Virus record (IMG/VR): IMGVR_UViG_3300034068_000720
Span: 1-52,670 of that record
DNA from: a virus
Taxonomy: Duplodnaviria; Caudoviricetes
Reading direction: 5' to 3' (one strand)
DNA length: 52,670 nt
Position 1 is the stretch's first letter. Every line of letters starts with the position of its first letter. The notes beneath the pieces are model-generated. The model was not told the DNA's origin, did not search any database, and saw nothing but the letters and a program-made list of their open reading frames with translations. A program made the translations under genes and the position numbers. This document shows positions 21,701 through 36,656 of the stretch, piece after piece.

Positions 21701-22240
21701 ATGCTTGATGACTTTTACGTTTACGAAACACCAGATTTTCTTGATGTCAACTACATCACTAACTTAGTTATGCAGAAGTTAGAGACTGATTTTGTCCTTC
21801 AGGGCTATGTCAGAATTGATGCCACACAAGATCCATATCTAAAAACTATTTTAGAACGCTTTCCATTCATTGGTGGTTGGCTCAATATCTACCATACTAA
21901 ACCAGAGGGATATATTCCTTTGCACATTGACGGCCATAGACTTGCGGCCTTTAACATTCCTATTAGTGGCTGTGATGAAACAAGTCAAACAATTTATTAT
22001 GAACCTGTTGGTGAAGTAGAAAAGGTTTACAAGCCAGATGAACGTCATTACCGGATCAATGGTGAGATGCAGGAAGTATATCGCTTTGCACTGACCAGAC
22101 CTGCACTAATACGAAACGATGTAGCCCATGATGTCAAGCGATTCAATGCCACCAGTACCAGGATCATTGCCAGCTGGGGAGTTGGCGGAACTTTTGAAGA
22201 ATGTAGAGATTTGTTCAAATCAATCTTGGAAAAAAGTTAA
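21701..22240 (+). CDS. Fe/2OG oxygenase-like protein
   Basis: PLHIDG, AFNIPI, VAHDV, RIIASW; start 5 nt after TAAGTA. Confidence 0.6.
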   Translation: MLDDFYVYETPDFLDVNYITNLVMQKLETDFVLQGYVRIDATQDPYLKTILERFPFIGGWLNIYHTKPEGYIPLHIDGHRLAAFNIPISGCDETSQTIYYEPVGEVEKVYKPDERHYRINGEMQEVYRFALTRPALIRNDVAHDVKRFNATSTRIIASWGVGGTFEECRDLFKSILEKS

Positions 22241-22258
22241 ATTATTTTACTAAAAGAC

Positions 22259-22287
22259 TTGACTTTTAAGTTAAACGGATATATAAT
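22259..22287 (+). promoter_or_regulatory. sigma70 promoter of tRNA array 1 leader
   Basis: TTGACT-17-TATAAT; ATG 6 nt downstream. Confidence 0.8.
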
Positions 22288-22293
22288 AACACT

Positions 22294-22359
22294 ATGCTAA
22301 ACATTAATCTATTACCAGGTAACACAGGAACAGCCTTAGAGGATACTCCAAGGCCGTAA
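22294..22359 (+). CDS. Putative leader (attenuator) peptide 1, MLNINLLPGNTGTALEDTPRP
   Basis: Starts at predicted transcription start; stop codon lies in the 5' strand of the antiterminator; composition matches array 1 tRNAs. Confidence 0.7.
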   Translation: MLNINLLPGNTGTALEDTPRP

Positions 22360-22419
22360 ATCTACACACCTAGTAAAGATTACGGCCCTGGAACTAAACA
22401 CTCCAGGGTTTTGCTTTTT
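22347..22419 (+). terminator. Attenuator 1: antiterminator overlapping intrinsic terminator
   Basis: TCCAAGGCCGTAAATCT (22347-63) pairs AGATTACGGCCCTGGA (22377-92); terminator CCCTGGA/TCCAGGG + TTTTGCTTTTT. Confidence 0.75.
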
Positions 22420-22441
22420 AGCAAGCTAGAATTTTTTTGAT

Positions 22442-22517
22442 GCGGGATTAGCTCAGTTGGTAGAGCGATACCTTGCCAAGGTATAGGTCGAGAGTTCGAG
22501 CCTCTTATCCCGCTCCA
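22442..22517 (+). tRNA. tRNA-Gly(GCC)
   Basis: Cloverleaf, anticodon loop TTGCCAA, CCA end. Confidence 0.95.
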
Positions 22518-22531
22518 AAAGAGTTTTAAAG

Positions 22532-22597
22532 TGTTGTAAAAATACAACAAAAAACTTTCAAATAAGTGTTGACAAAGTGGCTTAACTGTCGTATAAT
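22532..22597 (+). promoter_or_regulatory. Palindromic operator plus sigma70 promoter inside array 1
   Basis: TGTTGTAAAAATACAACA; TTGACA-17-TATAAT. Confidence 0.75.
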
Positions 22598-22636
22598 TGA
22601 TACTTACACAGCAACAAACGATAGAGTAGTTGTTTA

Positions 22637-22648
22637 GTTCTTTAACAA
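22637..22648 (+). promoter_or_regulatory. boxA-like antitermination element
   Basis: GTTCTTTAACAA about 35 nt after the predicted start; close to rrn boxA GCTCTTTAACA. Confidence 0.55.
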
Positions 22649-22721
22649 TTTAGTGGCAATTTTTATGTAAGCACATTAACTTGAACGGATTCTTTCCTAG
22701 TATTGCTTTTGTGTTTACCAT

Positions 22722-22796
22722 GCTCGATTCGTCTATCGGTTAGGACGCTGGCCTTTCACGCCGGAAAGAGGGGTTCGATTCCCCTATCGAGTACCA
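22722..22796 (+). tRNA. tRNA-Glu(TTC)
   Basis: Cloverleaf, loop CTTTCAC, CCA. Confidence 0.93.
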
Positions 22797-22943
22797 TTTG
22801 TTTAGTGTTATCAGGGTATCGTGTGCAGACGTGTACACTATGCGGGCCTAACTGGCGAGGGACAGGTCCTAATATAACTGCTTAGTCGCTATGGACGGAA
22901 GCGCAACTGACTCCTAAATTGAGCAGATAGCACTAAACAAATG
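22795..22943 (+). ncRNA. Unrecognised structured RNA closed by an 18-bp stem
   Basis: CATTTGTTTAGTGTTATC / GATAGCACTAAACAAATG enclosing a GC-richer 113 nt; fills the space between two tRNAs. Confidence 0.6.
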
Positions 22944-22946
22944 TAT

Positions 22947-23031
22947 GCGAGTATGGAGAAATCGGTATACTCAAGAGACTTAAAATCTCTCGTCGAAAGG
23001 CATCCCGGTTCGACCCCGGGTACTCGCACCA
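22947..23031 (+). tRNA. tRNA-Leu(TAA)
   Basis: Loop CTTAAAA, variable arm, CCA. Confidence 0.93.
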
Positions 23032-23037
23032 AGTTTA

Positions 23038-23114
23038 GGAGTGGTAGATCAGCTGGTTAGATTACCTGCCTGTCACGCAGGGGGTCGCGGGTTCGAGTCC
23101 CGTCCACTCCGCCA
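23038..23114 (+). tRNA. tRNA-Asp(GTC)
   Basis: Loop CTGTCAC, CCA. Confidence 0.95.
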
Positions 23115-23117
23115 AAT

Positions 23118-23310
23118 CCCGTTACTATTTTCGTTAAAATAGCGTTTGATTAGCGATAGAGATCCGGTGGCAGAAAACCGTAAGCGTGGGGCTGGAAACT
23201 ACCCCTACAGACTCTGATAGGCAGTATCCTTCTGCACACAGACTTTGAATAAAAAGGATGGACAGAGTAACCGCTCAATTTAAGGGCTGGTGTGGAAACC
23301 AGTAGCTTAA
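23118..23310 (+). ncRNA. Unrecognised ~190-nt structured RNA, copy 1
   Basis: Shares ordered motifs and a covarying 3' hairpin with 25559..25746. Confidence 0.65.
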
Positions 23311-23319
23311 TCCTAATTT

Positions 23320-23393
23320 TGTAGCAGTAGTAGTTACGGGCACTTCCGGCAACAGGAGGCGCTGACTAGCAGGGTGCAACTCCCTCGGCTACA
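23320..23393 (+). ncRNA. tRNA-like element (acceptor-like stem and T-arm, no D-arm, no CCA)
   Basis: TGTAGC/GCTACA stem, AGGG-TGCAACT-CCCT T-arm, long irregular central hairpin. Confidence 0.45.
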
Positions 23394-23401
23394 TCTATTT
23401 T

Positions 23402-23462
23402 GAGAGCCACATCGCCTGGATACTTCCTCCTTGGAGCACTAGGTCCTGCAACCGTGGCTCTC
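23402..23462 (+). ncRNA. Small structured RNA hairpin
   Basis: GAGAGCCAC/GTGGCTCTC outer stem; CCTGG/CTAGG inner stem. Confidence 0.45.
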
Positions 23463-23466
23463 CCTT

Positions 23467-23551
23467 ATATTAAAACACATTGACGTGTGACTGCGTCACT
23501 GTCTCAGTGAGAGGCCTGTTAAAGCTACAGGACATCAGTGTGTTTCAATAT
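23467..23551 (+). ncRNA. Stem-enclosed element directly upstream of tRNA-Leu(TAG)
   Basis: ATATTAAAACACATTGA / TCAGTGTGTTTCAATAT; same stem family as 24861..24943. Confidence 0.55.
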
Positions 23552-23555
23552 GATA

Positions 23556-23640
23556 GCCCCCTTGGCGGAATTGGTAGACGCGGCAGATTTAGGTTCTGTT
23601 ATCGAAAGGTGTGAGAGTTCGAGTCTCTTGGGGGGCACCA
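23556..23640 (+). tRNA. tRNA-Leu(TAG)
   Basis: Loop TTTAGGT, variable arm, CCA. Confidence 0.93.
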
Positions 23641-23649
23641 GGTTTTGAT

Positions 23650-23760
23650 GAGGGGGAGTGTGCATAGCGGCCCTGGGCCTACGGTGCCTACTCTTAAACA
23701 ACAGCAGAGCAGTTACGCAAACATCGTAACATAAGACTTGGAGCCACTCCTGTGCCCCTT
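23650..23760 (+). ncRNA. Unrecognised structured RNA
   Basis: GAGGGG/CCCCTT and GGAGTG/CACTCC closing stems; internal GTTACG/CGTAAC hairpin; no ORF. Confidence 0.45.
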
Positions 23761-23780
23761 AGCACTTTATAAATAGACGC

Positions 23781-24659
23781 ATGATACAATTAGATCAAGC
23801 AGAAGTTAGTTGGGCATTAAATGCACATTGTGGACATAAATGTTCATACTGTCATTCCCAATACAGTGGCGGTGAATTAGACAAGTCTGTTGATCAGTAT
23901 CTGGCAATTATTAAAAAATTGCAGGATACAAGATACCAGCACCATTCTAAGATATACTGGAAAATCAGTGGAGGGGAACCCCTACACTTTCCGCATCTAA
24001 GCACAGTATTAAAAAAGATGAAAGAAAAGCCTTGCGTCATACGACTGGATACCAGTGGTGATGACAATTGGTTTTCATTGTACGGTGTTATAAATCTAAT
24101 AGATAAAATAAAACTCACATATCATTCGTGGCAAAACGATGATGTGTTTGGTTTCGTACTAGAACAATGTCAAGAAAAGAATGTAAGTGTAACAATTGAA
24201 GTTCCATTGTTACCCGGTGCTATAGTAGAGTCTAGGGCCAAAGTAAAACATTTTGTAGACTTGGGATATGTATGCAATGAACAGGTACTACGTGACTTAG
24301 GTGGCGACTTACATCGGGGATATAGTCAACTTGATGAAAACAGAATCTATGGTAGACCCGATGATTGGGAACCAGAACTGGTTGTGTATAATCCAAACTT
24401 ACCAGATCCCAACTATGTAGATTTAAGTACTGTCAATAACACTGATCCTGTGTACACTGGTATGCCATGTTATGCAGGTGTTGATTGGTTGTACATAAAC
24501 CCTAGGGGATTTGCCTCATACAGCCAATGTGGTGGCAGGAACGAACACTTTAATGCGTTTGATCCTGCATGGCAACCACCCAGCAATTCGTTCCCTTGCA
24601 CAGTTAATCAGTGCAGGAGTGAACAGGATAGGACAAAAATAAGAATTCACAATTCTTAG
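23781..24659 (+). CDS. Radical SAM protein
   Basis: CGHKCSYC, SGGEP, C-terminal Cys cluster; TATAAATA 5 nt before ATG. Confidence 0.9.
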   Translation: MIQLDQAEVSWALNAHCGHKCSYCHSQYSGGELDKSVDQYLAIIKKLQDTRYQHHSKIYWKISGGEPLHFPHLSTVLKKMKEKPCVIRLDTSGDDNWFSLYGVINLIDKIKLTYHSWQNDDVFGFVLEQCQEKNVSVTIEVPLLPGAIVESRAKVKHFVDLGYVCNEQVLRDLGGDLHRGYSQLDENRIYGRPDDWEPELVVYNPNLPDPNYVDLSTVNNTDPVYTGMPCYAGVDWLYINPRGFASYSQCGGRNEHFNAFDPAWQPPSNSFPCTVNQCRSEQDRTKIRIHNS

Positions 24660-24667
24660 TACAGAAC

Positions 24668-24860
24668 GTTCCGAGTGTCTTCGGATAGTGTGACCCACAC
24701 GATGAGAAGTAGTGTGACAACTACGGGTGGTAGTCTTCGAACCCAAAGGCCGCTAGCAATGCGAGAACGGTCCCTGTCGGGAAGCGGGTGGAAGGAGTGT
24801 GTGATGGGTATGATAGCGTCATATCTTGATACTCTATAATTACCGCCGGGGGATGCAGAG
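24668..24860 (+). ncRNA. Unrecognised ~190-nt structured RNA
   Basis: GC-rich intergenic stretch with hairpins TGTC-TTCG-GATA, GTAGT/ACTAC, TCCC/GGGA, GGTATGA/TCATATC. Confidence 0.55.
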
Positions 24861-24943
24861 CATATTGAAGCACATTAAAGATAGGGTCGTAGCGGTTCCA
24901 TGAACTTGAGTACATACCAAGGTAGTTAGTGTGTTTCAATATG
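24861..24943 (+). ncRNA. Stem-enclosed element directly upstream of tRNA-Ala
   Basis: CATATTGAAGCACATTAA / TTAGTGTGTTTCAATATG, 18 bp with two G-U pairs. Confidence 0.55.
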
Positions 24944-24947
24944 TTTT

Positions 24948-25023
24948 GGGGGTGTAGCTCAGTTGGGAGAGCGTCTGCTTTGCAAGCAGAATGTCGCAGG
25001 TTCGATCCCTGTCACCTCCACCA
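24948..25023 (+). tRNA. tRNA-Ala(TGC)
   Basis: G3-U70 pair, loop TTTGCAA, CCA. Confidence 0.95.
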
Positions 25024-25040
25024 ATATTAAGGAGAAAGCT

Positions 25041-25208
25041 ATGAGTGATGGCGGTAAAGGATCTGCGCCAAGGCCAAAAAGTGTTGATGCAAATACATTT
25101 GCAAGCAATTGGGAATTGGCGTTTGGCAAGAAGAAATCTCAAGAAGAAATGATTGATGAAGAGATTGAAGTCGAAGGCACTGTCAAAGACAGTGAACAAG
25201 GCGGATAA
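25041..25208 (+). CDS. Small hypothetical protein
   Basis: AAGGAG SD; MSDGGKGSAPRP..; the ORF-track start lies inside the tRNA. Confidence 0.7.
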   Translation: MSDGGKGSAPRPKSVDANTFASNWELAFGKKKSQEEMIDEEIEVEGTVKDSEQGG

Positions 25209-25218
25209 GTAAAGTGCT

Positions 25219-25294
25219 GGGTCGTTAGCTCAGTTGGTAGAGCGTCTGCCTTACACGCAGAATGTCGGCGGTTCGAGCCCGTCACGACCCACCA
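25219..25294 (+). tRNA. tRNA-Val(TAC)
   Basis: Loop CTTACAC, CCA. Confidence 0.95.
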
Positions 25295-25301
25295 AAATTT
25301 A

Positions 25302-25377
25302 GCCCTTATAGCTCAGCTGGTAGAGCAACTGATTTGTAATCAGTAGGTCCCGTGTTCGAATCATGGTGGGGGCACCA
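25302..25377 (+). tRNA. tRNA-Thr(TGT)
   Basis: Loop TTTGTAA, CCA. Confidence 0.95.
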
Positions 25378-25384
25378 AATATCT

Positions 25385-25461
25385 CGGAGTGTAGCGCAGT
25401 CTGGTAGCGCACCTGGTTTGGGACCAGGGGGTCCAAGGTTCGAATCCTTGTACTCCGACCA
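25385..25461 (+). tRNA. tRNA-Pro(TGG)
   Basis: Loop TTTGGGA, CCA. Confidence 0.95.
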
Positions 25462-25466
25462 TGTTG

Positions 25467-25540
25467 GCGGGATTCGTAAAATGGTATTACCTTAGATTTC
25501 CAATCTAAAGTCGGGAGTTCGATTCTCCCATCCCGCTCCA
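25467..25540 (+). tRNA. tRNA-Gly(TCC)
   Basis: Loop TTTCCAA, CCA. Confidence 0.93.
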
Positions 25541-25558
25541 AGAACCCGGGCGCCCTTG

Positions 25559-25746
25559 CCCGTTATACAAAGGGGGGAATACTGGCAAACCCATAGACGC
25601 CACGGTGCATTGGATCTACCGCAAGGTTCCCTTTAGGAACTACTTGAGAAATCACAAAGGCAGGGACGCTAACCTGTCTAAATAGAAAAGTACGTAGACA
25701 GAGTAGACTGCTCAGTCCGGGGCCTATGTGGTGTAGGTAGCCGGAC
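25559..25746 (+). ncRNA. Unrecognised ~190-nt structured RNA, copy 2
   Basis: Homologous in motif order and structure to 23118..23310. Confidence 0.65.
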
Positions 25747-25755
25747 ACTAATTAT

Positions 25756-25831
25756 CGCGGGGTACGTCAGTGGCCAGACTGCTAGGCTCATAACCTAGAA
25801 GACGGAGGTTCGAATCCTTCCCCCGCAACCA
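25756..25831 (+). tRNA. tRNA-fMet(CAT), initiator type
   Basis: CGCGGGG start with C1:A72 mismatch, loop CTCATAA, CCA. Confidence 0.9.
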
Positions 25832-25837
25832 ACACAT

Positions 25838-25913
25838 TCCCTGATAGCTCAGTTGGTAGAGCACACGACTGTTAATCGTGTTGTCCCTGGTTCGAGCCCA
25901 GGTCGGGGAGCCA
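25838..25913 (+). tRNA. tRNA-Asn(GTT)
   Basis: Loop CTGTTAA, CCA. Confidence 0.95.
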
Positions 25914-32436: not shown

Positions 32437-32465
32437 TTGACAAGTAGACTAAGTAAGTGTATAAT
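32437..32465 (+). promoter_or_regulatory. sigma70 promoter of tRNA array 2 leader
   Basis: TTGACA-17-TATAAT; ATG 7 nt downstream. Confidence 0.8.
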
Positions 32466-32472
32466 GATTACT

Positions 32473-32586
32473 ATGATGCAAAACATTTCTTATCAATCGC
32501 AAAGTTGGTGCTCTAAGCAGAGTATAAGCTTCTGTGCCTCTAAGTTTATGTCTTATCGTCATATTTCAGGAGCATGTCCAGGATAA
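32473..32586 (+). CDS. Putative leader (attenuator) peptide 2, MMQNISYQSQSWCSKQSISFCASKFMSYRHISGACPG
   Basis: Leaderless start; last codons form the antiterminator 5' strand; composition matches array 2 tRNAs. Confidence 0.75.
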   Translation: MMQNISYQSQSWCSKQSISFCASKFMSYRHISGACPG

Positions 32587-32638
32587 AGTAATCTAGCCAT
32601 TACTAACACCCTGGACTCGAAAGGCTCCAGGGTTTTTT
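32576..32638 (+). terminator. Attenuator 2: antiterminator overlapping intrinsic terminator
   Basis: GTCCAGG/CCTGGAC plus AGTAAT/ATTACT; terminator CCCTGGA/TCCAGGG + TTTTTT. Confidence 0.8.
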
Positions 32639-32652
32639 ATTGATAGGAAAAA

Positions 32653-32814
32653 ATGAAATCAGGTAACAAGAAATTAAAAGAAGTTGAGTGGATTCGACAG
32701 CACACGTTAACACAAGAGCAGACTAAACAACTGATTCTAAACAAGTTAAAACGTGCTGAAGAAATGCATATCGCTTTTAAACGGCAGGAGATGTTGGTTC
32801 AAAAACATCGTTGA
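32653..32814 (+). CDS. Small basic hypothetical protein (53 aa)
   Basis: AGGA SD; first ORF after attenuator 2. Confidence 0.6.
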   Translation: MKSGNKKLKEVEWIRQHTLTQEQTKQLILNKLKRAEEMHIAFKRQEMLVQKHR

Positions 32815-32918
32815 TAGCAAAGTGTGTATAGGTAACGAGGACCTAGCCTGCACTTAAAACATGGGCAAACGGGCGGCGACTAGGATGAAATCCCTTGTGT
32901 GGGAGGAAAAATTAGATC
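32815..32918 (+). ncRNA. Possible structured RNA
   Basis: GC-rich intergenic stretch; TAGGT/ACCTA and GGAT-GAA-ATCC hairpins. Confidence 0.4.
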
Positions 32919-32974
32919 GTATTAAAGCATTCTTTAAGAACAGGCAGCCTAAGTATTTTAGAGTGCTTTAATAC
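32919..32974 (+). ncRNA. Stem-enclosed element
   Basis: GTATTAAAGCATTCT / AGAGTGCTTTAATAC, related to the array 1 stems. Confidence 0.45.
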
Positions 32975-33041: not shown

Positions 33042-33116
33042 GGGCTAATAGCTTAATGGTAAAGCAGTCGACTCATAATCGATTGAGTGTAGGTTCAATT
33101 CCTACTTAGCCCACCA
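33042..33116 (+). tRNA. tRNA-Ile2(CAT), lysidine type
   Basis: CGACTCATAATCG anticodon arm and GGTTCAA T-loop resemble bacterial Ile2; Met cannot be excluded. Confidence 0.8.
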
Positions 33117-33125
33117 AACAATTTA

Positions 33126-33210
33126 GGAGATGCCGCCGTAATGGTATGGCAGGGGACTGTAAATCCTCCGACTTCGGTCATAATAGGTTCGATCCCTATC
33201 ATCTCCACCA
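33126..33210 (+). tRNA. tRNA-Tyr(GTA)
   Basis: Loop CTGTAAA, variable arm, CCA. Confidence 0.93.
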
Positions 33211-33214
33211 ATTT

Positions 33215-33288
33215 GTATCCATAGTGTAATGGCAGCATCGCGGTCTCCAAAACCGTCAGTCTAGGTTCGAGTCCTAGTGGGTACGCCA
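33215..33288 (+). tRNA. tRNA-Trp(CCA)
   Basis: Loop CTCCAAA, CCA. Confidence 0.93.
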
Positions 33289-33295
33289 AATAATA

Positions 33296-33387
33296 GGAAA
33301 GTGATGCAGGTGCGTTGGTGCGCCGACCAGCCTTGAAAACTGGGTTCTCAGAAATGGGATGGGGTTCGACTCCTCCGCTTTCCGCCA
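33296..33387 (+). tRNA. tRNA-Ser(TGA) with 8/4 cloverleaf
   Basis: 8-bp acceptor, 4-bp T-stem, 6-bp D-stem, loop CTTGAAA, G73, CCA. Confidence 0.85.
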
Positions 33388-33390
33388 AAT

Positions 33391-33466
33391 GCCAAGATAG
33401 CTCAGTTGGTAGAGCACCGGTCTGAAGAATCGGGTGTGGTTGGTTCGATCCCAACTCTTGGTACCA
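33391..33466 (+). tRNA. tRNA-Phe(GAA)
   Basis: Loop CTGAAGA, CCA. Confidence 0.93.
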
Positions 33467-33473
33467 AATTAAT

Positions 33474-33549
33474 GTGGGTGTGTACTGAATGGTTAGGTAG
33501 CGGATTGCAAATCCGTTTTATGCAGGTTCGATCCCTGTCACCCACTCCA
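33474..33549 (+). tRNA. tRNA-Cys(GCA)
   Basis: Loop TTGCAAA, U73, CCA. Confidence 0.93.
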
Positions 33550-33558
33550 AAATATTAC

Positions 33559-33632
33559 TGGGGGTTAGTTAAATGGTATAACCGCGGATTTTGATTCCGC
33601 TGTCACAAGTTCGATTCTTGTACCCTCTGCCA
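33559..33632 (+). tRNA. tRNA-Gln(TTG)
   Basis: Loop TTTTGAT, CCA. Confidence 0.92.
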
Positions 33633-33651
33633 AATTTATCAGGAGTAACGT

Positions 33652-33774
33652 ATGAACTGGGAAGCATCTAACAAAATTAACGAAAGGGCAATCCTAGAAT
33701 GGACCCGAATGTGTAAAGCATACCGGGAGTATCTTTACCTCGGAAGATCTTCATCGCTATCGTATAATGGATAA
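33652..33774 (+). CDS. Possible 40-aa ORF overlapping tRNA-Arg(GCG)
   Basis: AGGAG SD; MNWEASNKINERAILEW.. Confidence 0.4.
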   Translation: MNWEASNKINERAILEWTRMCKAYREYLYLGRSSSLSYNG

Positions 33775-33827
33775 TACACCAGTTTGCGGAACTGGGAATT
33801 TAGGTTCGATTCCTGATGGCGGTACCA
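33753..33827 (+). tRNA. tRNA-Arg(GCG)
   Basis: Cloverleaf, loop TTGCGGA, CCA. Confidence 0.88.
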
Positions 33828-33841
33828 ATATAAATATTTCA

Positions 33842-34585
33842 ATGAATCCAAATTTATTAATAATCAAAGACATTGTAGGAACACCATTGATAACCAAGTT
33901 TAGAGGAGTAGATTCTGAATCTCGTTTCAATCATAATCTGGCCAATACTCCTGGCTTTAAAGCTGAATGGGCCAACTTTCCAATCACCTATAGTTTAAAC
34001 AGCAACTACTATCGTTGCCCCGAATGGAAAGACATAGAGTGGGATAAAAGTGTTTTGTTGTTAGGCGACAGTTGGGCATTTGGCCAGGGGCTGGATCTTC
34101 CTTCAACCATCGCCAGCAGACTTAGTCATGAGCTAAACGGGATACCTGTGGTCAACCTTGGGCAAACTGGTACCAGCTGGACATTTTCCTGGATTAATTC
34201 AGTTAGATTAGTTGAAGCTGGAATTAGGCCCCGGGCCGTGATTTATATTTGGACGCATACTGCACGTTACGCTCAGTTGCTAGAAAACAACATAACACAC
34301 TCGCATGGGGCATGGGACGTTGACCAGCCAGGCTTAAGCCGAGAATATGCCATGGATCCGGTGCATTCTATGAACATGAGTATAGAGATTTTAAGATCAA
34401 TTCGCACAATGTGGACTTGTCCACAACTGCATTACACTTGGAGTAAGCATGTTGAGTTGCCAGGAGTACACTATCTTGGTAACTCAGAACTTGACAAAGC
34501 TCGTGATCTTATACATCCTGGTCCCAGATCAACTGCACAGTGGGCACGATCTATGGCACAGGAATTGTCAAGTAAAATTAACTAA
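33842..34585 (+). CDS. SGNH-like hypothetical protein
   Basis: LLGDSWAFG, VNLG..G, DLIHPG; TATAAATA-N5-ATG. Confidence 0.65.
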   Translation: MNPNLLIIKDIVGTPLITKFRGVDSESRFNHNLANTPGFKAEWANFPITYSLNSNYYRCPEWKDIEWDKSVLLLGDSWAFGQGLDLPSTIASRLSHELNGIPVVNLGQTGTSWTFSWINSVRLVEAGIRPRAVIYIWTHTARYAQLLENNITHSHGAWDVDQPGLSREYAMDPVHSMNMSIEILRSIRTMWTCPQLHYTWSKHVELPGVHYLGNSELDKARDLIHPGPRSTAQWARSMAQELSSKIN

Positions 34586-34593
34586 TAAAATTT

Positions 34594-34669
34594 GGGACTA
34601 TAGCTCAGCTGGTAGAGCAGTGGACTTTTAATCCATTGGTCGCGAGTTCGAATCTCGCTGGTCCCACCA
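34594..34669 (+). tRNA. tRNA-Lys(TTT)
   Basis: Loop CTTTTAA, CCA. Confidence 0.95.
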
Positions 34670-34670
34670 A

Positions 34671-35171
34671 TTATTCAGAAGGTTTATCTATATTAATAGA
34701 AATAGATACTCTGTCACCAGATCCGGTGTTTATACCAGCTCTGTGATGCATGTCTTTTGAAAATAAAAACCATGTGCCTGTTTCGCAGTTGTGCTTGGTC
34801 CACCGGTTACCAATTAGTAATTCCAATGGAGGGTGACTTGGTTTACAATTAACATAATACACTAAAACTTTATCTCCTGAGTGTAAATGATAGTGTGACT
34901 TCATTATACCTCCGGTTAATGTAATATTATACCAACTTATCATTATTTGATCAGGTACAACCAAGTGCTTTAAGCAATCTAGTACTGGTGCAAATTCAGG
35001 CCAAAGATGCGGGTTGGCACCGGGGTTTGTTCGGGCTCCTGCGTGAGATTCCACTATTCTTTCAAAATGTTTACTAGTAGGGTTAATCATAGCGATAGTC
35101 TTATCAGTGGAAGTATCCATGCATCGTTTCATCAATGCAGTATTATCAATATTAAGACGTCCAGTTAGCAT
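34671..35171 (-). CDS. Fe/2OG oxygenase-like protein
   Basis: SWYN, SHYH, MHHRAGIN..DRVSISINI; TAAATA-N5-ATG. Confidence 0.7.
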   Translation of the reverse strand: MLTGRLNIDNTALMKRCMDTSTDKTIAMINPTSKHFERIVESHAGARTNPGANPHLWPEFAPVLDCLKHLVVPDQIMISWYNITLTGGIMKSHYHLHSGDKVLVYYVNCKPSHPPLELLIGNRWTKHNCETGTWFLFSKDMHHRAGINTGSGDRVSISINIDKPSE

Positions 35172-35199
35172 AAAATTATTTAGTGCAGACTTTCTATAT

Positions 35200-35274
35200 G
35201 GTGATATAGCACAGTGGTAGTGCATCTGCTTCATACGCAGAGTGTCGTAGGTTCAAATCCTACTATCACCACCA
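35200..35274 (+). tRNA. tRNA-Met(CAT), elongator type
   Basis: G1-C72 pair, loop TTCATAC, CCA. Confidence 0.88.
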
Positions 35275-35283
35275 AAATATTAT

Positions 35284-35359
35284 GGAGTTGTTAGTGTAAA
35301 GGTTAACACCACGGATTGTGATTCCGTTAATATGGGTTCGATTCCCATACTTCTCCCCA
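35284..35359 (+). tRNA. tRNA-His(GTG)
   Basis: G-1:C73, loop TTGTGAT, CCA; two U-U mismatches in acceptor stem. Confidence 0.85.
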
Positions 35360-35385
35360 ATATATAAGTATACAACGTAATTTAC

Positions 35386-35461
35386 ACCGCTATAGCTCAG
35401 TTGGTAGAGCACCGCCTTGATAAGGCGTAGGTCCCTGGTTCGAGTCCAGGTGGCGGTACCA
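35386..35461 (+). tRNA. tRNA-Ile(GAT)
   Basis: Loop TTGATAA, CCA. Confidence 0.93.
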
Positions 35462-35464
35462 ATT

Positions 35465-35662
35465 TTATTGTTTGTCTATCTTCTTGGCGATTTCGTGAGC
35501 CGTTTTAATTACCTTTTTAGGAAGGTCATGTGCAGGTTTTTCACCGTAGCCGTATTTCTTTTTGGCCACTGCCATTCCTACAGCATAAGGATTGTCTACT
35601 TTTTCTTCTACAGGTACGTCATTGATAATGTCAATGTATTTTCTTAGTAAGTTGCCACTCAT
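35465..35662 (-). CDS. Small hypothetical protein
   Basis: AAGGA SD; LRKYIDII, NPYAVGMAVAKK. Confidence 0.65.
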   Translation of the reverse strand: MSGNLLRKYIDIINDVPVEEKVDNPYAVGMAVAKKKYGYGEKPAHDLPKKVIKTAHEIAKKIDKQ

Positions 35663-35730
35663 GATCAAATTCCTTTACAATATTTAACACCGTTAAATAA
35701 AGTATACTCATACTTTCGTACGAGTATCGT

Positions 35731-35805
35731 CGGTCCTTAGTTCAATGGATAGAATGCTTGGCTTCGAACCAAGTGGTGTGGGTTCGATTCCTGCAGGACC
35801 GGCCA
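35731..35805 (+). tRNA. tRNA-Arg(TCG)
   Basis: Loop CTTCGAA, CCA. Confidence 0.92.
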
Positions 35806-35811
35806 GTTATT

Positions 35812-36144
35812 TTAGCGCAGACCGCGAGCCAATCGCATTGGAATAACAGCGGCAATTTCGTCGTAGTCATCCATGTCAATCACATCGTCGGTGCCAACTT
35901 CAATTATTTTTTCAACCAAGAAGTGCAGTAGTGTGTCACTGACAACATCTTCGCGTACCAGTTCTAGTATGCGGATAAGTGCAGGAATATTAAAGCTGAC
36001 AGCAGGACCGTAGGCTTCTTTGGTTTCTACCATTGATTCATCTTCAGTTTCGCCATTGGTATCTGTTGTAGTACCATTTCTATAATGTAGTACATATTTA
36101 GACTTGGGTAAAATTGTTTTGTTAGATTTTCTGTAGTATGCCAT
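35812..36144 (-). CDS. Hypothetical protein
   Basis: AAGGA SD; IPALIRILELVRED. Confidence 0.65.
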   Translation of the reverse strand: MAYYRKSNKTILPKSKYVLHYRNGTTTDTNGETEDESMVETKEAYGPAVSFNIPALIRILELVREDVVSDTLLHFLVEKIIEVGTDDVIDMDDYDEIAAVIPMRLARGLR

Positions 36145-36231
36145 TTGGTTTCCTTTGTAGTTACTTAGACCATCTATTTAAAATTACAAAATGAAAACAT
36201 CACACTACTTTAGCCGATCTAGCAATTTGTC

Positions 36232-36260
36232 TTGACAAAGATCAATAAGTATCGTATAAT
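36232..36260 (+). promoter_or_regulatory. sigma70 promoter upstream of tRNA-Ser(GCT)
   Basis: TTGACA-17-TATAAT. Confidence 0.7.
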
Positions 36261-36281
36261 AAACAAATAGCAAAGAACACA

Positions 36282-36369
36282 GGAGCATTGGCCGACCGGT
36301 TAAGGCAACAGATTGCTAATCTGTCACTGCGTAAGTGGTGAGTAGGTTCGATTCCTACATGCTCCGCCA
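36282..36369 (+). tRNA. tRNA-Ser(GCT)
   Basis: Loop TTGCTAA, variable arm, CCA. Confidence 0.93.
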
Positions 36370-36393
36370 ATTTTTACAACCAGAAAGACTCAG

Positions 36394-36549
36394 ATGATTA
36401 AACCAGGCAAAACATTCAAACTTAGCAAATCAACCAAGCGCATGATGTGCAGTATTGTTGACACTAAATCTCGCAATCAATACAAAGCAATGATGATTCA
36501 AGCCGAGCTTGCTGCCAATGTTATCATCAAACGCGAACCACGCAAGTAA
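36394..36549 (+). CDS. Small basic hypothetical protein (51 aa)
   Basis: MIKPGKTFKLSKSTKRMM..MIQAELA. Confidence 0.6.
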   Translation: MIKPGKTFKLSKSTKRMMCSIVDTKSRNQYKAMMIQAELAANVIIKREPRK

Positions 36550-36581
36550 TTTTCTACACAGGGGTTAGTTGATTGAATTAT

Positions 36582-36656
36582 CTGGCGTTAGTACAATGGA
36601 TAGTACATAGAGCTTCTACCTCTAGAATGTGGGTTCGATTCCTGCACGCCGGACCA
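36582..36656 (+). tRNA. tRNA-Arg(TCT)
   Basis: Loop CTTCTAC, CCA. Confidence 0.92.

Follow-up and report, generated by a model that had tools for sequence, protein, structure and literature searches.

A short leader open reading frame and three overlapping hairpins ahead of a phage tRNA array: a candidate attenuator whose codons mirror the neighbouring tRNA genes

The present study analyzes a short leader open reading frame (ORF), here called leader 1, and the overlapping hairpins at its end, which together stand directly before a tRNA array in a viral genome fragment and are examined as a candidate ribosome-mediated attenuator. The window, that is the whole stretch of DNA analysed, is the IMG/VR virus record IMGVR_UViG_3300034068_000720 (Duplodnaviria; Caudoviricetes), 52,670 nt long and with a CheckV completeness of 5%. 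ARAGORN called 26 tRNA genes in it, arranged in two arrays (22442-25913 and 33042-36656), and a leader stands before each array. The features at the first of them are these.

22259..22287, + strand: promoter P1, sigma-70-type, TTGACT, 17-nt spacer, TATAAT, 11/12 consensus, with the -10 box at 22282-22287
22294..22359, + strand: leader ORF 1, 21 codons (MLNINLLPGNTGTALEDTPRP) plus TAA at 22357-22359
22333..22354, + strand: hairpin A (1:2, putative anti-antiterminator), within the ORF; -9.9 kcal/mol, z -3.16
22352..22387, + strand: hairpin B (2:3, putative antiterminator); -14.8 kcal/mol, z -5.82, 0/200 shuffles as stable
22384..22419, + strand: predicted terminator T (3:4), stem 22384-22392/22402-22410, -13.7 kcal/mol, 9-nt loop ACUAAACAC, U tract UUUUGCUUUUU to 22419
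22427..22441, + strand: conserved spacer TAGAATTTTTTTGAT, abutting tRNA-Gly(GCC)
22442..22517, + strand: tRNA-Gly(GCC), the sole gene between terminator T and the following promoter
22442..25913, + strand: tRNA array 1, 12 tRNAs (ARAGORN)
22569..22597, + strand: promoter before tRNA-Glu, TTGACA, 17-nt spacer, TATAAT, 12/12 consensus

Relatives of this locus were collected by several routes: through the 181-amino-acid (aa) ORF upstream of leader 1, which has no Pfam or PHROGs match itself (10 loci), through two leader motifs (true relatives made up 11 of 46 stretches matched by one and 11 of 19 by the other), and through the promoter-ATG motif, which matched 28 stretches in viral contigs and at least 119 in metagenomes, with 21 rows carrying a leader of the leader 1 family among the matches listed. 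The alignment holds 21 sequences distinct at the DNA level, and a later scan added three; together they give 19 distinct versions of the leader 1 peptide, of 20, 21, 22 or 25 residues. A blastn search of 22100-22700 against 50,697 phage records found 50 that match, and among the 40 listed all matches lie within the tRNA-Gly part. Fourteen DNA-type public runs labelled lake or freshwater hold 0.43-0.97 of sampled words from the locus; six metatranscriptome runs hold 0.09-0.13, counts that are no evidence of expression.

Several patterns are shared by all of the relatives. The promoter motif GGATATATAAT-N3-ACT-ATG is kept throughout and the spacing of the ATG to the -10 box is fixed. In the window the A of the ATG is the seventh base after TATAAT, so a leaderless mRNA is predicted. 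The same promoter-ATG motif starts an ORF at locus L138 that has a DnaJ domain from residue 2 (PF00226, E=7.8e-23), and leaderless translation of real proteins is thus plausible in these phages. An earlier reading made from the sequence alone had drawn the leader from the ATG at 22294 to a stop at 22357-59, and this frame, 21 codons long in the window, is the one that the relatives conserve: TAA or TGA occupies a fixed place in the 5' arm of hairpin B in every relative, and the distance from ATG to stop is 60, 63, 66 or 75 nt, always a multiple of three. Minimal changes at the three codon positions number 7/9/15 upstream of hairpin A and 5/5/3 within the hairpins. Two synonymous Leu changes, and one change in B that keeps a G-U pair, separate the relative L194 from the window. 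Of the 23 distinct loci whose sequence extends far enough downstream of the leader, 21 have tRNA-Gly(GCC) as the next gene. At L124 and L151, which have the 25-codon leader type, a sequence about 150 nt past the ATG starts like tRNA-Gly but stops resembling it beyond the D loop, where unrelated sequence takes over; this may reflect an insertion or intron, or a dead gene. The spacer TAGAATTTTTTTGAT is found in most relatives and is missing from the L196 and L115 types.

The RNA from 22294 to 22420 folds at -36.7 kcal/mol (z -4.3, with 0/200 shuffles as stable), and hairpins A, B and T are each more stable than shuffles. Hairpin B shares 3 nt with A (22352-22354) and 4 nt with T (22384-22387), giving the mutually exclusive 1:2, 2:3 and 3:4 layout of a leader-peptide attenuator, with the leader 1 stop codon in the 5' arm of B and a gap of 22 nt from the U tract to the start of tRNA-Gly(GCC). 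A simple terminator scan did not list T because it takes loops of 3-8 nt and the T loop has 9. All three hairpins are kept in 21/21 aligned relatives. Covariation was counted on segments anchored at the stop codon instead of on the MAFFT alignment, from which RNAalifold recovered T alone since B is one column out of register in some rows. On the anchored segments T is paired in 97.1% of cells (best shifted register 66%), with compensatory changes at 2 pairs in 12 cells; B in 83.1% (61%), with compensatory changes at 5 of 10 pairs in 16 cells; and A in 79.3% (50%), with compensatory changes at 3 pairs in 5 cells. In B the middle base of the stop codon forms an A-U pair in 7 distinct rows and a G-C pair in 6, so the exchange of TAA for TGA together with its partner compensates the pairing and retains the stop. 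As separate observations, the 3' strands of A and T resemble each other (ACTCCAAGG, ACTCCAGGG), which makes a 1:4 helix possible, and the word CTAAACA occurs both at 22297-22303 (leader 1 codons 2-4) and at 22395-22401 (the T loop), a direct repeat also seen in several relatives.

The codons of leader 1 are ATG CTA AAC ATT AAT CTA TTA CCA GGT AAC ACA GGA ACA GCC TTA GAG GAT ACT CCA AGG CCG, and the tRNAs of array 1 are Gly-GCC, Glu-TTC, Leu-TAA, Asp-GTC, Leu-TAG, Ala-TGC, Val-TAC, Thr-TGT, Pro-TGG, Gly-TCC, Met-CAT and Asn-GTT. The sequence-only reading held that the leader samples this array at the level of individual anticodons, and its codon bookkeeping proved accurate: Leu appears only as CTA (twice) and TTA (twice), with both Leu tRNAs (TAG, TAA) in array 1; Gly appears as GGT and GGA, with Gly-GCC and Gly-TCC in the array; CCA, ACA, AAC/AAT, GAT and GAG have their Pro-TGG, Thr-TGT, Asn-GTT, Asp-GTC and Glu-TTC, all found by ARAGORN; and Val is absent. 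Array-1 tRNAs read 18 of the 20 codons after the ATG, the misses being only ATT (Ile) and AGG (Arg), the two exceptions already named, and AGG at 22351-22353 overlaps the first two bases of the B 5' arm, as had been said of the Arg codon and the antiterminator strand. Val is the only one of the 11 elongator tRNAs in array 1 without a codon in the leader, leaving 10 that are represented. Against an expected fraction of 0.585-0.588 from 50-54 window ORFs, 18/20 has a binomial P of 0.0026; under strict wobble, with no four-way reading by U34, the score is 16/20 (P=0.0014); and 1359 of 200000 random 20-codon gene windows match array 1 at least as well. By itself this match is modest and post hoc, and it is strong only when joined with the second leader and the relatives. 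Sensing of Gly specifically was considered and rejected: every leader has at least one GGT or GGC, but the probability of this is about 0.6 for any 20-codon ORF, as derived from window codon usage in which GGY makes up about 4.5% of codons, and the Gly codon falls at codon 8, 9 or 13 or in the hairpin A loop, positions expected to act differently.

The second leader lies before array 2 and has a similar anatomy.

32437..32465, + strand: leader 2 promoter, TTGACA, 17-nt spacer, TATAAT, 12/12 consensus, with the ATG 8 nt after the -10 box
32473..32586, + strand: leader ORF 2, predicted leaderless, 37 codons (MMQNISYQSQSWCSKQSISFCASKFMSYRHISGACPG) plus TAA
32578-32614, + strand: putative antiterminator B2, stop codon inside; -9.5 kcal/mol alone, z -0.95; overlaps T2
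32608-32633, + strand: predicted terminator T2, with a U tract (six U) to 32639; -15.1 kcal/mol, z -4.04
32653..32814, + strand: gene for a 53-aa protein, following T2, of a 49-59-aa protein family
33042..36656, + strand: tRNA array 2, 14 tRNAs called by ARAGORN, plus tRNA-Ser(UGA)
about 33296-33387, + strand: probable tRNA-Ser(UGA), between tRNA-Trp and tRNA-Phe

The probable tRNA-Ser(UGA) was missed at the default ARAGORN threshold and called at a relaxed one; its region scores 35 bits with the Rfam tRNA-Sec model, short of the 47 set as threshold, and relatives carry tRNA-Ser(UGA) at the corresponding place. With this tRNA counted, array-2 tRNAs read 29 of the 36 leader 2 codons after the ATG, and of the seven misses one is ATA and four fall in the part of the C terminus that lies in hairpins; a score of 29 was reached by 0 of 200000 random 36-codon gene windows. 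The two leaders can be set against the two arrays by counting only the codons that a single array can read, given below as array-1-only/array-2-only with Fisher tests that are not independent, the four genomes being related.

Window: leader 1 18/2, leader 2 6/27, Fisher P 3.3e-7
G002: leader 1 19/1, leader 2 6/26, Fisher P 4.5e-8
G005: leader 1 17/2, leader 2 9/25, Fisher P 1.1e-5
G006: leader 1 17/2, leader 2 7/25, Fisher P 4.9e-6

These splits support the claim that leader 1 samples array 1, as does the finding that leader composition follows tRNAs that have moved between arrays (Leu-TAG with CTA, Cys and His). Leader 1 has CTA in the window and in G008, both with tRNA-Leu(UAG) in array 1. 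In G002, G004, G005, G006 and G010 its Leu codons are TTA or TTG only and tRNA-Leu(UAG) is not in array 1; in three of these (G002, G005, G006) that tRNA is in array 2 and leader 2 gains Leu. Overall, among the 8 genomes whose arrays are complete, CTN in leader 1 and tRNA-Leu(UAG) in array 1 are concordant in 7, a comparison that leaves out G003, G007 and G009, whose arrays are cut by contig ends. The exception is G001, with CTC in the leader and no Leu tRNA in the array. Its leader 1 reads MMTHYVNTTNACGAEDYLRA, and its array carries tRNAs for Gly(GCC), Glu, Cys, Ala, Val, Thr, Asn, Met and Asp; apart from Met, each of these eight amino acids occurs in the leader, Cys and Val included, Pro is found neither in the leader nor among the tRNAs, and GGT is the sole Gly codon where Gly(GCC) is the sole Gly tRNA. 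Unmatched in this leader are His, Tyr (twice), Leu and Arg.

In a second lineage the arrays are split differently. The leader-2 homologue of G012 avoids Asp, Tyr, His and Arg, whose tRNAs lie upstream (for Arg, mostly upstream), and 32 of its codons are read by its own array versus 1 by the other. The leader promoter of G012 is the sole consensus promoter ahead of nine tightly packed tRNAs, so the module there would gate the array directly. Between G012/G015 and G013/G014 tRNA-Cys and tRNA-His swap sides, and Cys and His in the leaders change accordingly, with concordance of leader and array in 8/8 genomes of the leader-2 family for each. Across those eight genomes an amino acid is present in the leader in 98 of 102 cases with an array tRNA versus 29 of 50 without (P=1.1e-8), and for amino acids of variable array membership in 44 of 46 versus 27 of 42 (P=2.5e-4); the relatives are phylogenetically related and such cross-genome P values are not independent. 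In G002, G003 and G010 a leaderless 14-codon ORF (MMKHFSIAGSISIR or MMTHFSIAGSISIR) with three ATA codons lies directly 5' of tRNA-Ile(UAU). This unit of promoter, 14-codon ORF and tRNA-Ile(UAU) was observed at L342 1094-1153, L344 1507-1566 and L351 1545-1604; its stop codon is at the top of an 8-bp hairpin with no U tract, and its tRNA is 92 nt with an unusually long extra arm. Other candidates were of no help. The G011 leader has just 13 of 25 codons read by its own array, and the leaderless ORFs of 33-37 codons before tRNA-Gln(UUG) at L084 and L099 have a single Gln codon each. The candidates found by regular expression before a small Glu/Tyr/Asp/Arg/His array in G012 and G015 are not enriched (8/31 and 7/27) and were set aside as possibly not leaders, having no T module by the pattern used. 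In that small array of G012 (L353 5545) ARAGORN reports a tRNA with the anticodon CUA, amber-reading and labelled 'Pyl'.

The effect of a translating ribosome on the hairpins was modelled by folding with and without a masked footprint, a check that the sequence-only reading had proposed, on 19 of the 21 rows (L223 and L136 were omitted as near copies of L196 and L118). When the footprint puts the stop codon in the A site, the T stem has a probability of 0.97-0.99 in 19/19 members and 0.99 in the window, consistent in these computations with the proposal that a ribosome at the stop covers the antiterminator strand and lets the terminator form. A footprint at codons 13-16 lowers T to about 0.2-0.3 in the window, and a mid-ORF footprint brings it to 0.30 or less in 15/19 members, so that in silico the position of the ribosome decides between terminator and antiterminator and the polarity argued for earlier, on when stalled, is the one computed. 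A terminator that forms regardless of masking, the outcome named as fatal to that argument, was not seen in those 15 members and was seen in the other four. Without any ribosome T has a probability of at least 0.88 in 10 of 19 members, 0.39-0.51 in four and 0.05 or less in five.

Patterns detected are consistent with a ribosome-mediated transcription attenuator that gates phage tRNA transcription and whose leader ORF is a codon checklist of the neighbouring array, a reading to which we give a probability of about 0.6. Transcription from P1 would begin on or beside the A of the ATG, and a 70S ribosome would translate the 21 codons of the resulting leaderless mRNA. If decoding is fast the ribosome would reach the stop in the B 5' arm, B would be blocked, T would form and transcription would end before tRNA-Gly(GCC). 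If decoding is slow at about codons 11-16 the ribosome would sit on the A 5' arm and leave the B 5' arm free, and B could then form and take 4 nt of T, with RNA polymerase continuing into tRNA-Gly and probably further into array 1. With no ribosome, A and T would form and transcription would end. The predicted outcome is negative feedback, in which transcription is on when the tRNAs provided by the array are limiting, as may happen early in infection, under heavy phage translation or after cleavage of host tRNAs; leader 2 would be the equivalent control for the array-2 set.

The opposite polarity could be argued from the same anatomy, and we consider it unlikely. A fast ribosome would melt A and leave the stop before the B 3' arm is made, so that B forms and polymerase reads through, while a slow or absent one would leave A and T, and tRNAs would be made only while decoding works, as a checkpoint or positive feedback. 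The 10 of 19 members predicted to form A and T without a ribosome suit this scheme, the equilibrium model is blind to the dwell time of the ribosome on the stop codon, and the stop codon is merely about 50 nt from the end of T. On the other side, a footprint at the stop yields T in every member folded, the stop stays within the B arm through compensatory changes, as one would expect if it matters whether that arm is occupied, and positive feedback on tRNA supply has no obvious use.

It is equally improbable, in our estimate, that the short ORFs are small genes or 5' ORFs that matter in themselves, with codons adapted to co-expressed tRNAs, hairpins that are an ordinary terminator and a stabilising structure, and tRNAs made by leaky read-through. 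The ORF is indeed conserved in frame, a terminator follows it, and the N-termini of the peptides (MLN.NLLP, MM..) are fairly conserved. But the 19 peptides vary widely and their C-terminal third is dictated by hairpins A and B, and the conserved overlaps of A with B and of B with T, together with a stop within B, would be superfluous for a plain gene. In relatives of the L196 type the T stem ends about 9 nt before the tRNA, which therefore has no room for a promoter of its own, so a stand-alone small RNA or micropeptide gene with its own promoter and terminator and an independent gene downstream is not what was found. The peptides also lack Pfam or PHROG matches, though none would be expected at 20-37 aa.

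The module extends beyond these leaders. A search with the T loop in viral contigs matched at least 117 stretches, with a terminator of this type at no fewer than 52 distinct loci, and at 48 of the 52 loci among the matches listed the 5' arm of a B-like hairpin contains the end of an ORF of 20 codons or more. Longer leaders in the family have 26-53 codons and precede tRNA arrays, or a GC-rich RNA stretch and then tRNA-Trp, or proteins of 49-59 aa. The last form a family with the motif ..LT.EQ...LI..K..RA.. whose members follow leader/terminator modules (L224, L243, L245, L266, L273 and others) and have no Pfam or PHROG match; the 53-aa product of 32653-32814 in the window, also without a match in either, belongs to it, and these proteins may be regulators. 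Such a distribution could suggest that the B/T module is the target of a trans-acting factor, either a phage antiterminator or RNA-binding protein on the A/C-rich T loop or a small RNA, with the ORF playing a minor part. The loop ACUAAACAC is kept in 12 of 21 relatives with little variation in the others, it recurs with its terminator before different genes at those loci, and a 49-59-aa protein often follows. However, the 52 loci were found by searching with that loop, which makes its constancy among them a product of the search itself, other loops occur at L144 and L209, and the codon/tRNA matching and the in-frame stop in B are left unexplained; we regard this explanation as less likely than either of the two above. 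Least credible of all, to the point of being very improbable, is a non-coding structured leader, such as a tRNA precursor processing or stability element with ORF and codon match arising by chance, for the strong structure (z -4.3) and the many members also stop-free in one non-ORF frame have to be weighed against an ATG fixed at the predicted start, a frame kept in all length classes, a TAA to TGA change with its compensating partner, and a leader/array split (P=3e-7) that recurs with covariation.

Several findings weigh against the attenuator with a codon checklist. The anatomy, its conservation, the compensatory and frame-conserving changes and the codon/tRNA matching are observations, and from them we infer the transcription start, translation, termination, the switch and its polarity. 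The dependence among related genomes noted above limits the matching statistics, and coverage taken by itself is uninformative: of 181 array amino acids 168 occur in the leaders, yet taken one by one the units do not stand out from random gene windows (P 0.008-0.76), and it is the exclusivity statistic, not coverage, that carries weight. There is no run or enrichment of codons for one sensed amino acid in leader 1, where each codon occurs at most twice and each amino acid at most four times in 21 codons and the enrichment is for a set of 10 amino acids; Gly codons are 2 of 21 and not enriched, though tRNA-Gly is the gated gene. The 12/12 promoter after tRNA-Gly means that the switch in the window would directly gate that tRNA only, and array 2 is set off from leader 2 by a protein gene, by about 190 nt without an assignment and by a further promoter. 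Given these downstream promoters, the two leaders would directly control a single tRNA and a single small gene, unless polymerase reads on further. Under classical attenuation the switch would open only for stalls at about codons 11-16, so about 6 of 21 codons would be sensed, and codons 2-10 match the array too, though they would not be sensed; this suggests a transit-time (race) mechanism, or selection keeping the sensor blind to other tRNAs. The last 5-8 leader codons lie in hairpins and RNA constraints could partly shape their composition. Covariation in hairpin A is weak. Finally, L196, L068, L181 and L151 (4/19) keep T at equilibrium at every stall site, and five of 19 members favour B even without a ribosome; in these five a helix of the A 5' strand with the T 3' strand encloses B, and as a result the T strand remains paired beside the U tract.

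The amino-acid operon attenuators (trp, his, leu, thr, ilv) are controlled through leader peptides, and those of thr and ilv are multivalent, sensing two or three amino acids. The phage element resembles them in its short 5' leader ORF, its three overlapping hairpins and its intrinsic terminator with a U tract, and in the predicted behaviour, with the antiterminator shut off by a ribosome that has reached the end of the ORF and read-through following from a stall on strand 1. It differs in gating tRNAs and not biosynthetic enzymes, the next gene being tRNA-Gly(GCC) and then the tRNA array, with no gene that makes or charges the sensed amino acid among those regulated; in having no single-codon run but one to three codons for nearly every array tRNA; in being predicted leaderless, with no Shine-Dalgarno sequence; in placing the stop codon within the antiterminator arm; and in being found in a phage. 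The T-box binds one uncharged tRNA directly and needs no ribosome. Like the T-box, the phage leader would report tRNA status in cis and control a terminator/antiterminator pair; unlike it, the phage leader conserves an ORF, and the window has no T-box match. Rfam gave no match at 22294-22420 at E up to 1, with T-box and leader families such as Thr_leader, Trp_leader, His_leader and Leu_leader included, and at E up to 10 only unrelated sub-threshold matches (best 23.1 bits against a threshold of 49); in the relatives the best was Thr_leader at 30.4 bits against a threshold of 55. The element is thus outside every curated RNA family, and it lacks two defining features of the classical attenuators, the single-codon run and targets in amino-acid metabolism.

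Closer precedents for the leaderless arrangement come from actinobacteria. Polycysteine leaderless short ORFs are reported to act as attenuators in mycobacteria (bioRxiv 10.1101/834739), Corynebacterium glutamicum ilvBNC is reported to have a three-hairpin attenuator (PMC11857589), and leader peptides are described in C. glutamicum (PMC3890552). The phage leader is like them in having the regulatory ORF at the 5' end of the transcript with codon content that encodes the sensed input, and unlike them in that theirs is one amino acid, a codon run and a metabolic operon of the cell, whereas the phage leader carries a broad set that mirrors tRNA genes. Phage tRNA sets have been viewed as codon compensation or as counter-defence against tRNA-targeting nucleases (PMC10264068); that work appears to concern tRNA sequence and not the regulation of tRNA genes, and the view it presents gives a reason for raising tRNA output when decoding fails. 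No account of leader peptides or attenuators before phage tRNA genes was found in open-access papers and bioRxiv. The role of phage tRNAs is debated between compensation and counter-defence. We know of no attenuator that regulates a tRNA gene, and to our knowledge the regulation by phages of their own tRNA genes is essentially unknown.

It is possible, on a little less than even terms, that large freshwater phages generally gate their tRNA arrays by checklist leaders: mini-ORFs with test codons for nearly every array tRNA, in which ribosome transit racing RNA polymerase would set read-through of a shared terminator module. Such a many-input decoding sensor would balance the phage tRNA pool and activate the arrays in response to depletion of host tRNAs or to their cleavage by anticodon nucleases; elsewhere in these genomes, small regulatory proteins would be under the control of this module fitted with different leaders. 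If the attenuator reading is true, these would be the first tRNA genes under leader-peptide attenuation and the leader a natural sensor that polls many tRNAs together and not one amino acid; the purpose of phage tRNA arrays would become directly testable, and the element could serve as a compact synthetic-circuit part reporting decoding capacity.

Some further features of the arrays were observed. After the T2 module and the small gene that follows it, a GC-rich stretch at 32820-32930 carries the motif ...GGTAACGAGGACC...AAACGGGCGGCGACTAGGATG... and recurs after T modules in other phages, directly before tRNA-Trp (L353 7395-7590); it had no Rfam match at E up to 1-10 and may be a new structured RNA. 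The interior of array 1 has long GC-rich spacers (23115-23555, 23641-23780, 24660-24947 and 25541-25755) that contain no ORF, match nothing in Rfam at E up to 1 and look structured. A 15-nt word, GTGTGTTTCAATATG, occurs at 23541-23555 and 24933-24947, just 5' of tRNA-Leu(UAG) and tRNA-Ala(UGC), and a similar word lies 5' of tRNA-Trp in L353; it may be a processing signal. Also within array 1, a 292-aa ORF at 23781-24659 shows weak similarity of a radical-SAM/QueE-like kind (PHROG 2076 at 3.5e-8; Pfam Radical_SAM at 22.2 bits, under the cut-off) and may, judging from these, encode a tRNA-modification enzyme. A 55-aa ORF at 25041-25208, between tRNA-Ala and tRNA-Val, has a Shine-Dalgarno sequence and an acidic C terminus.

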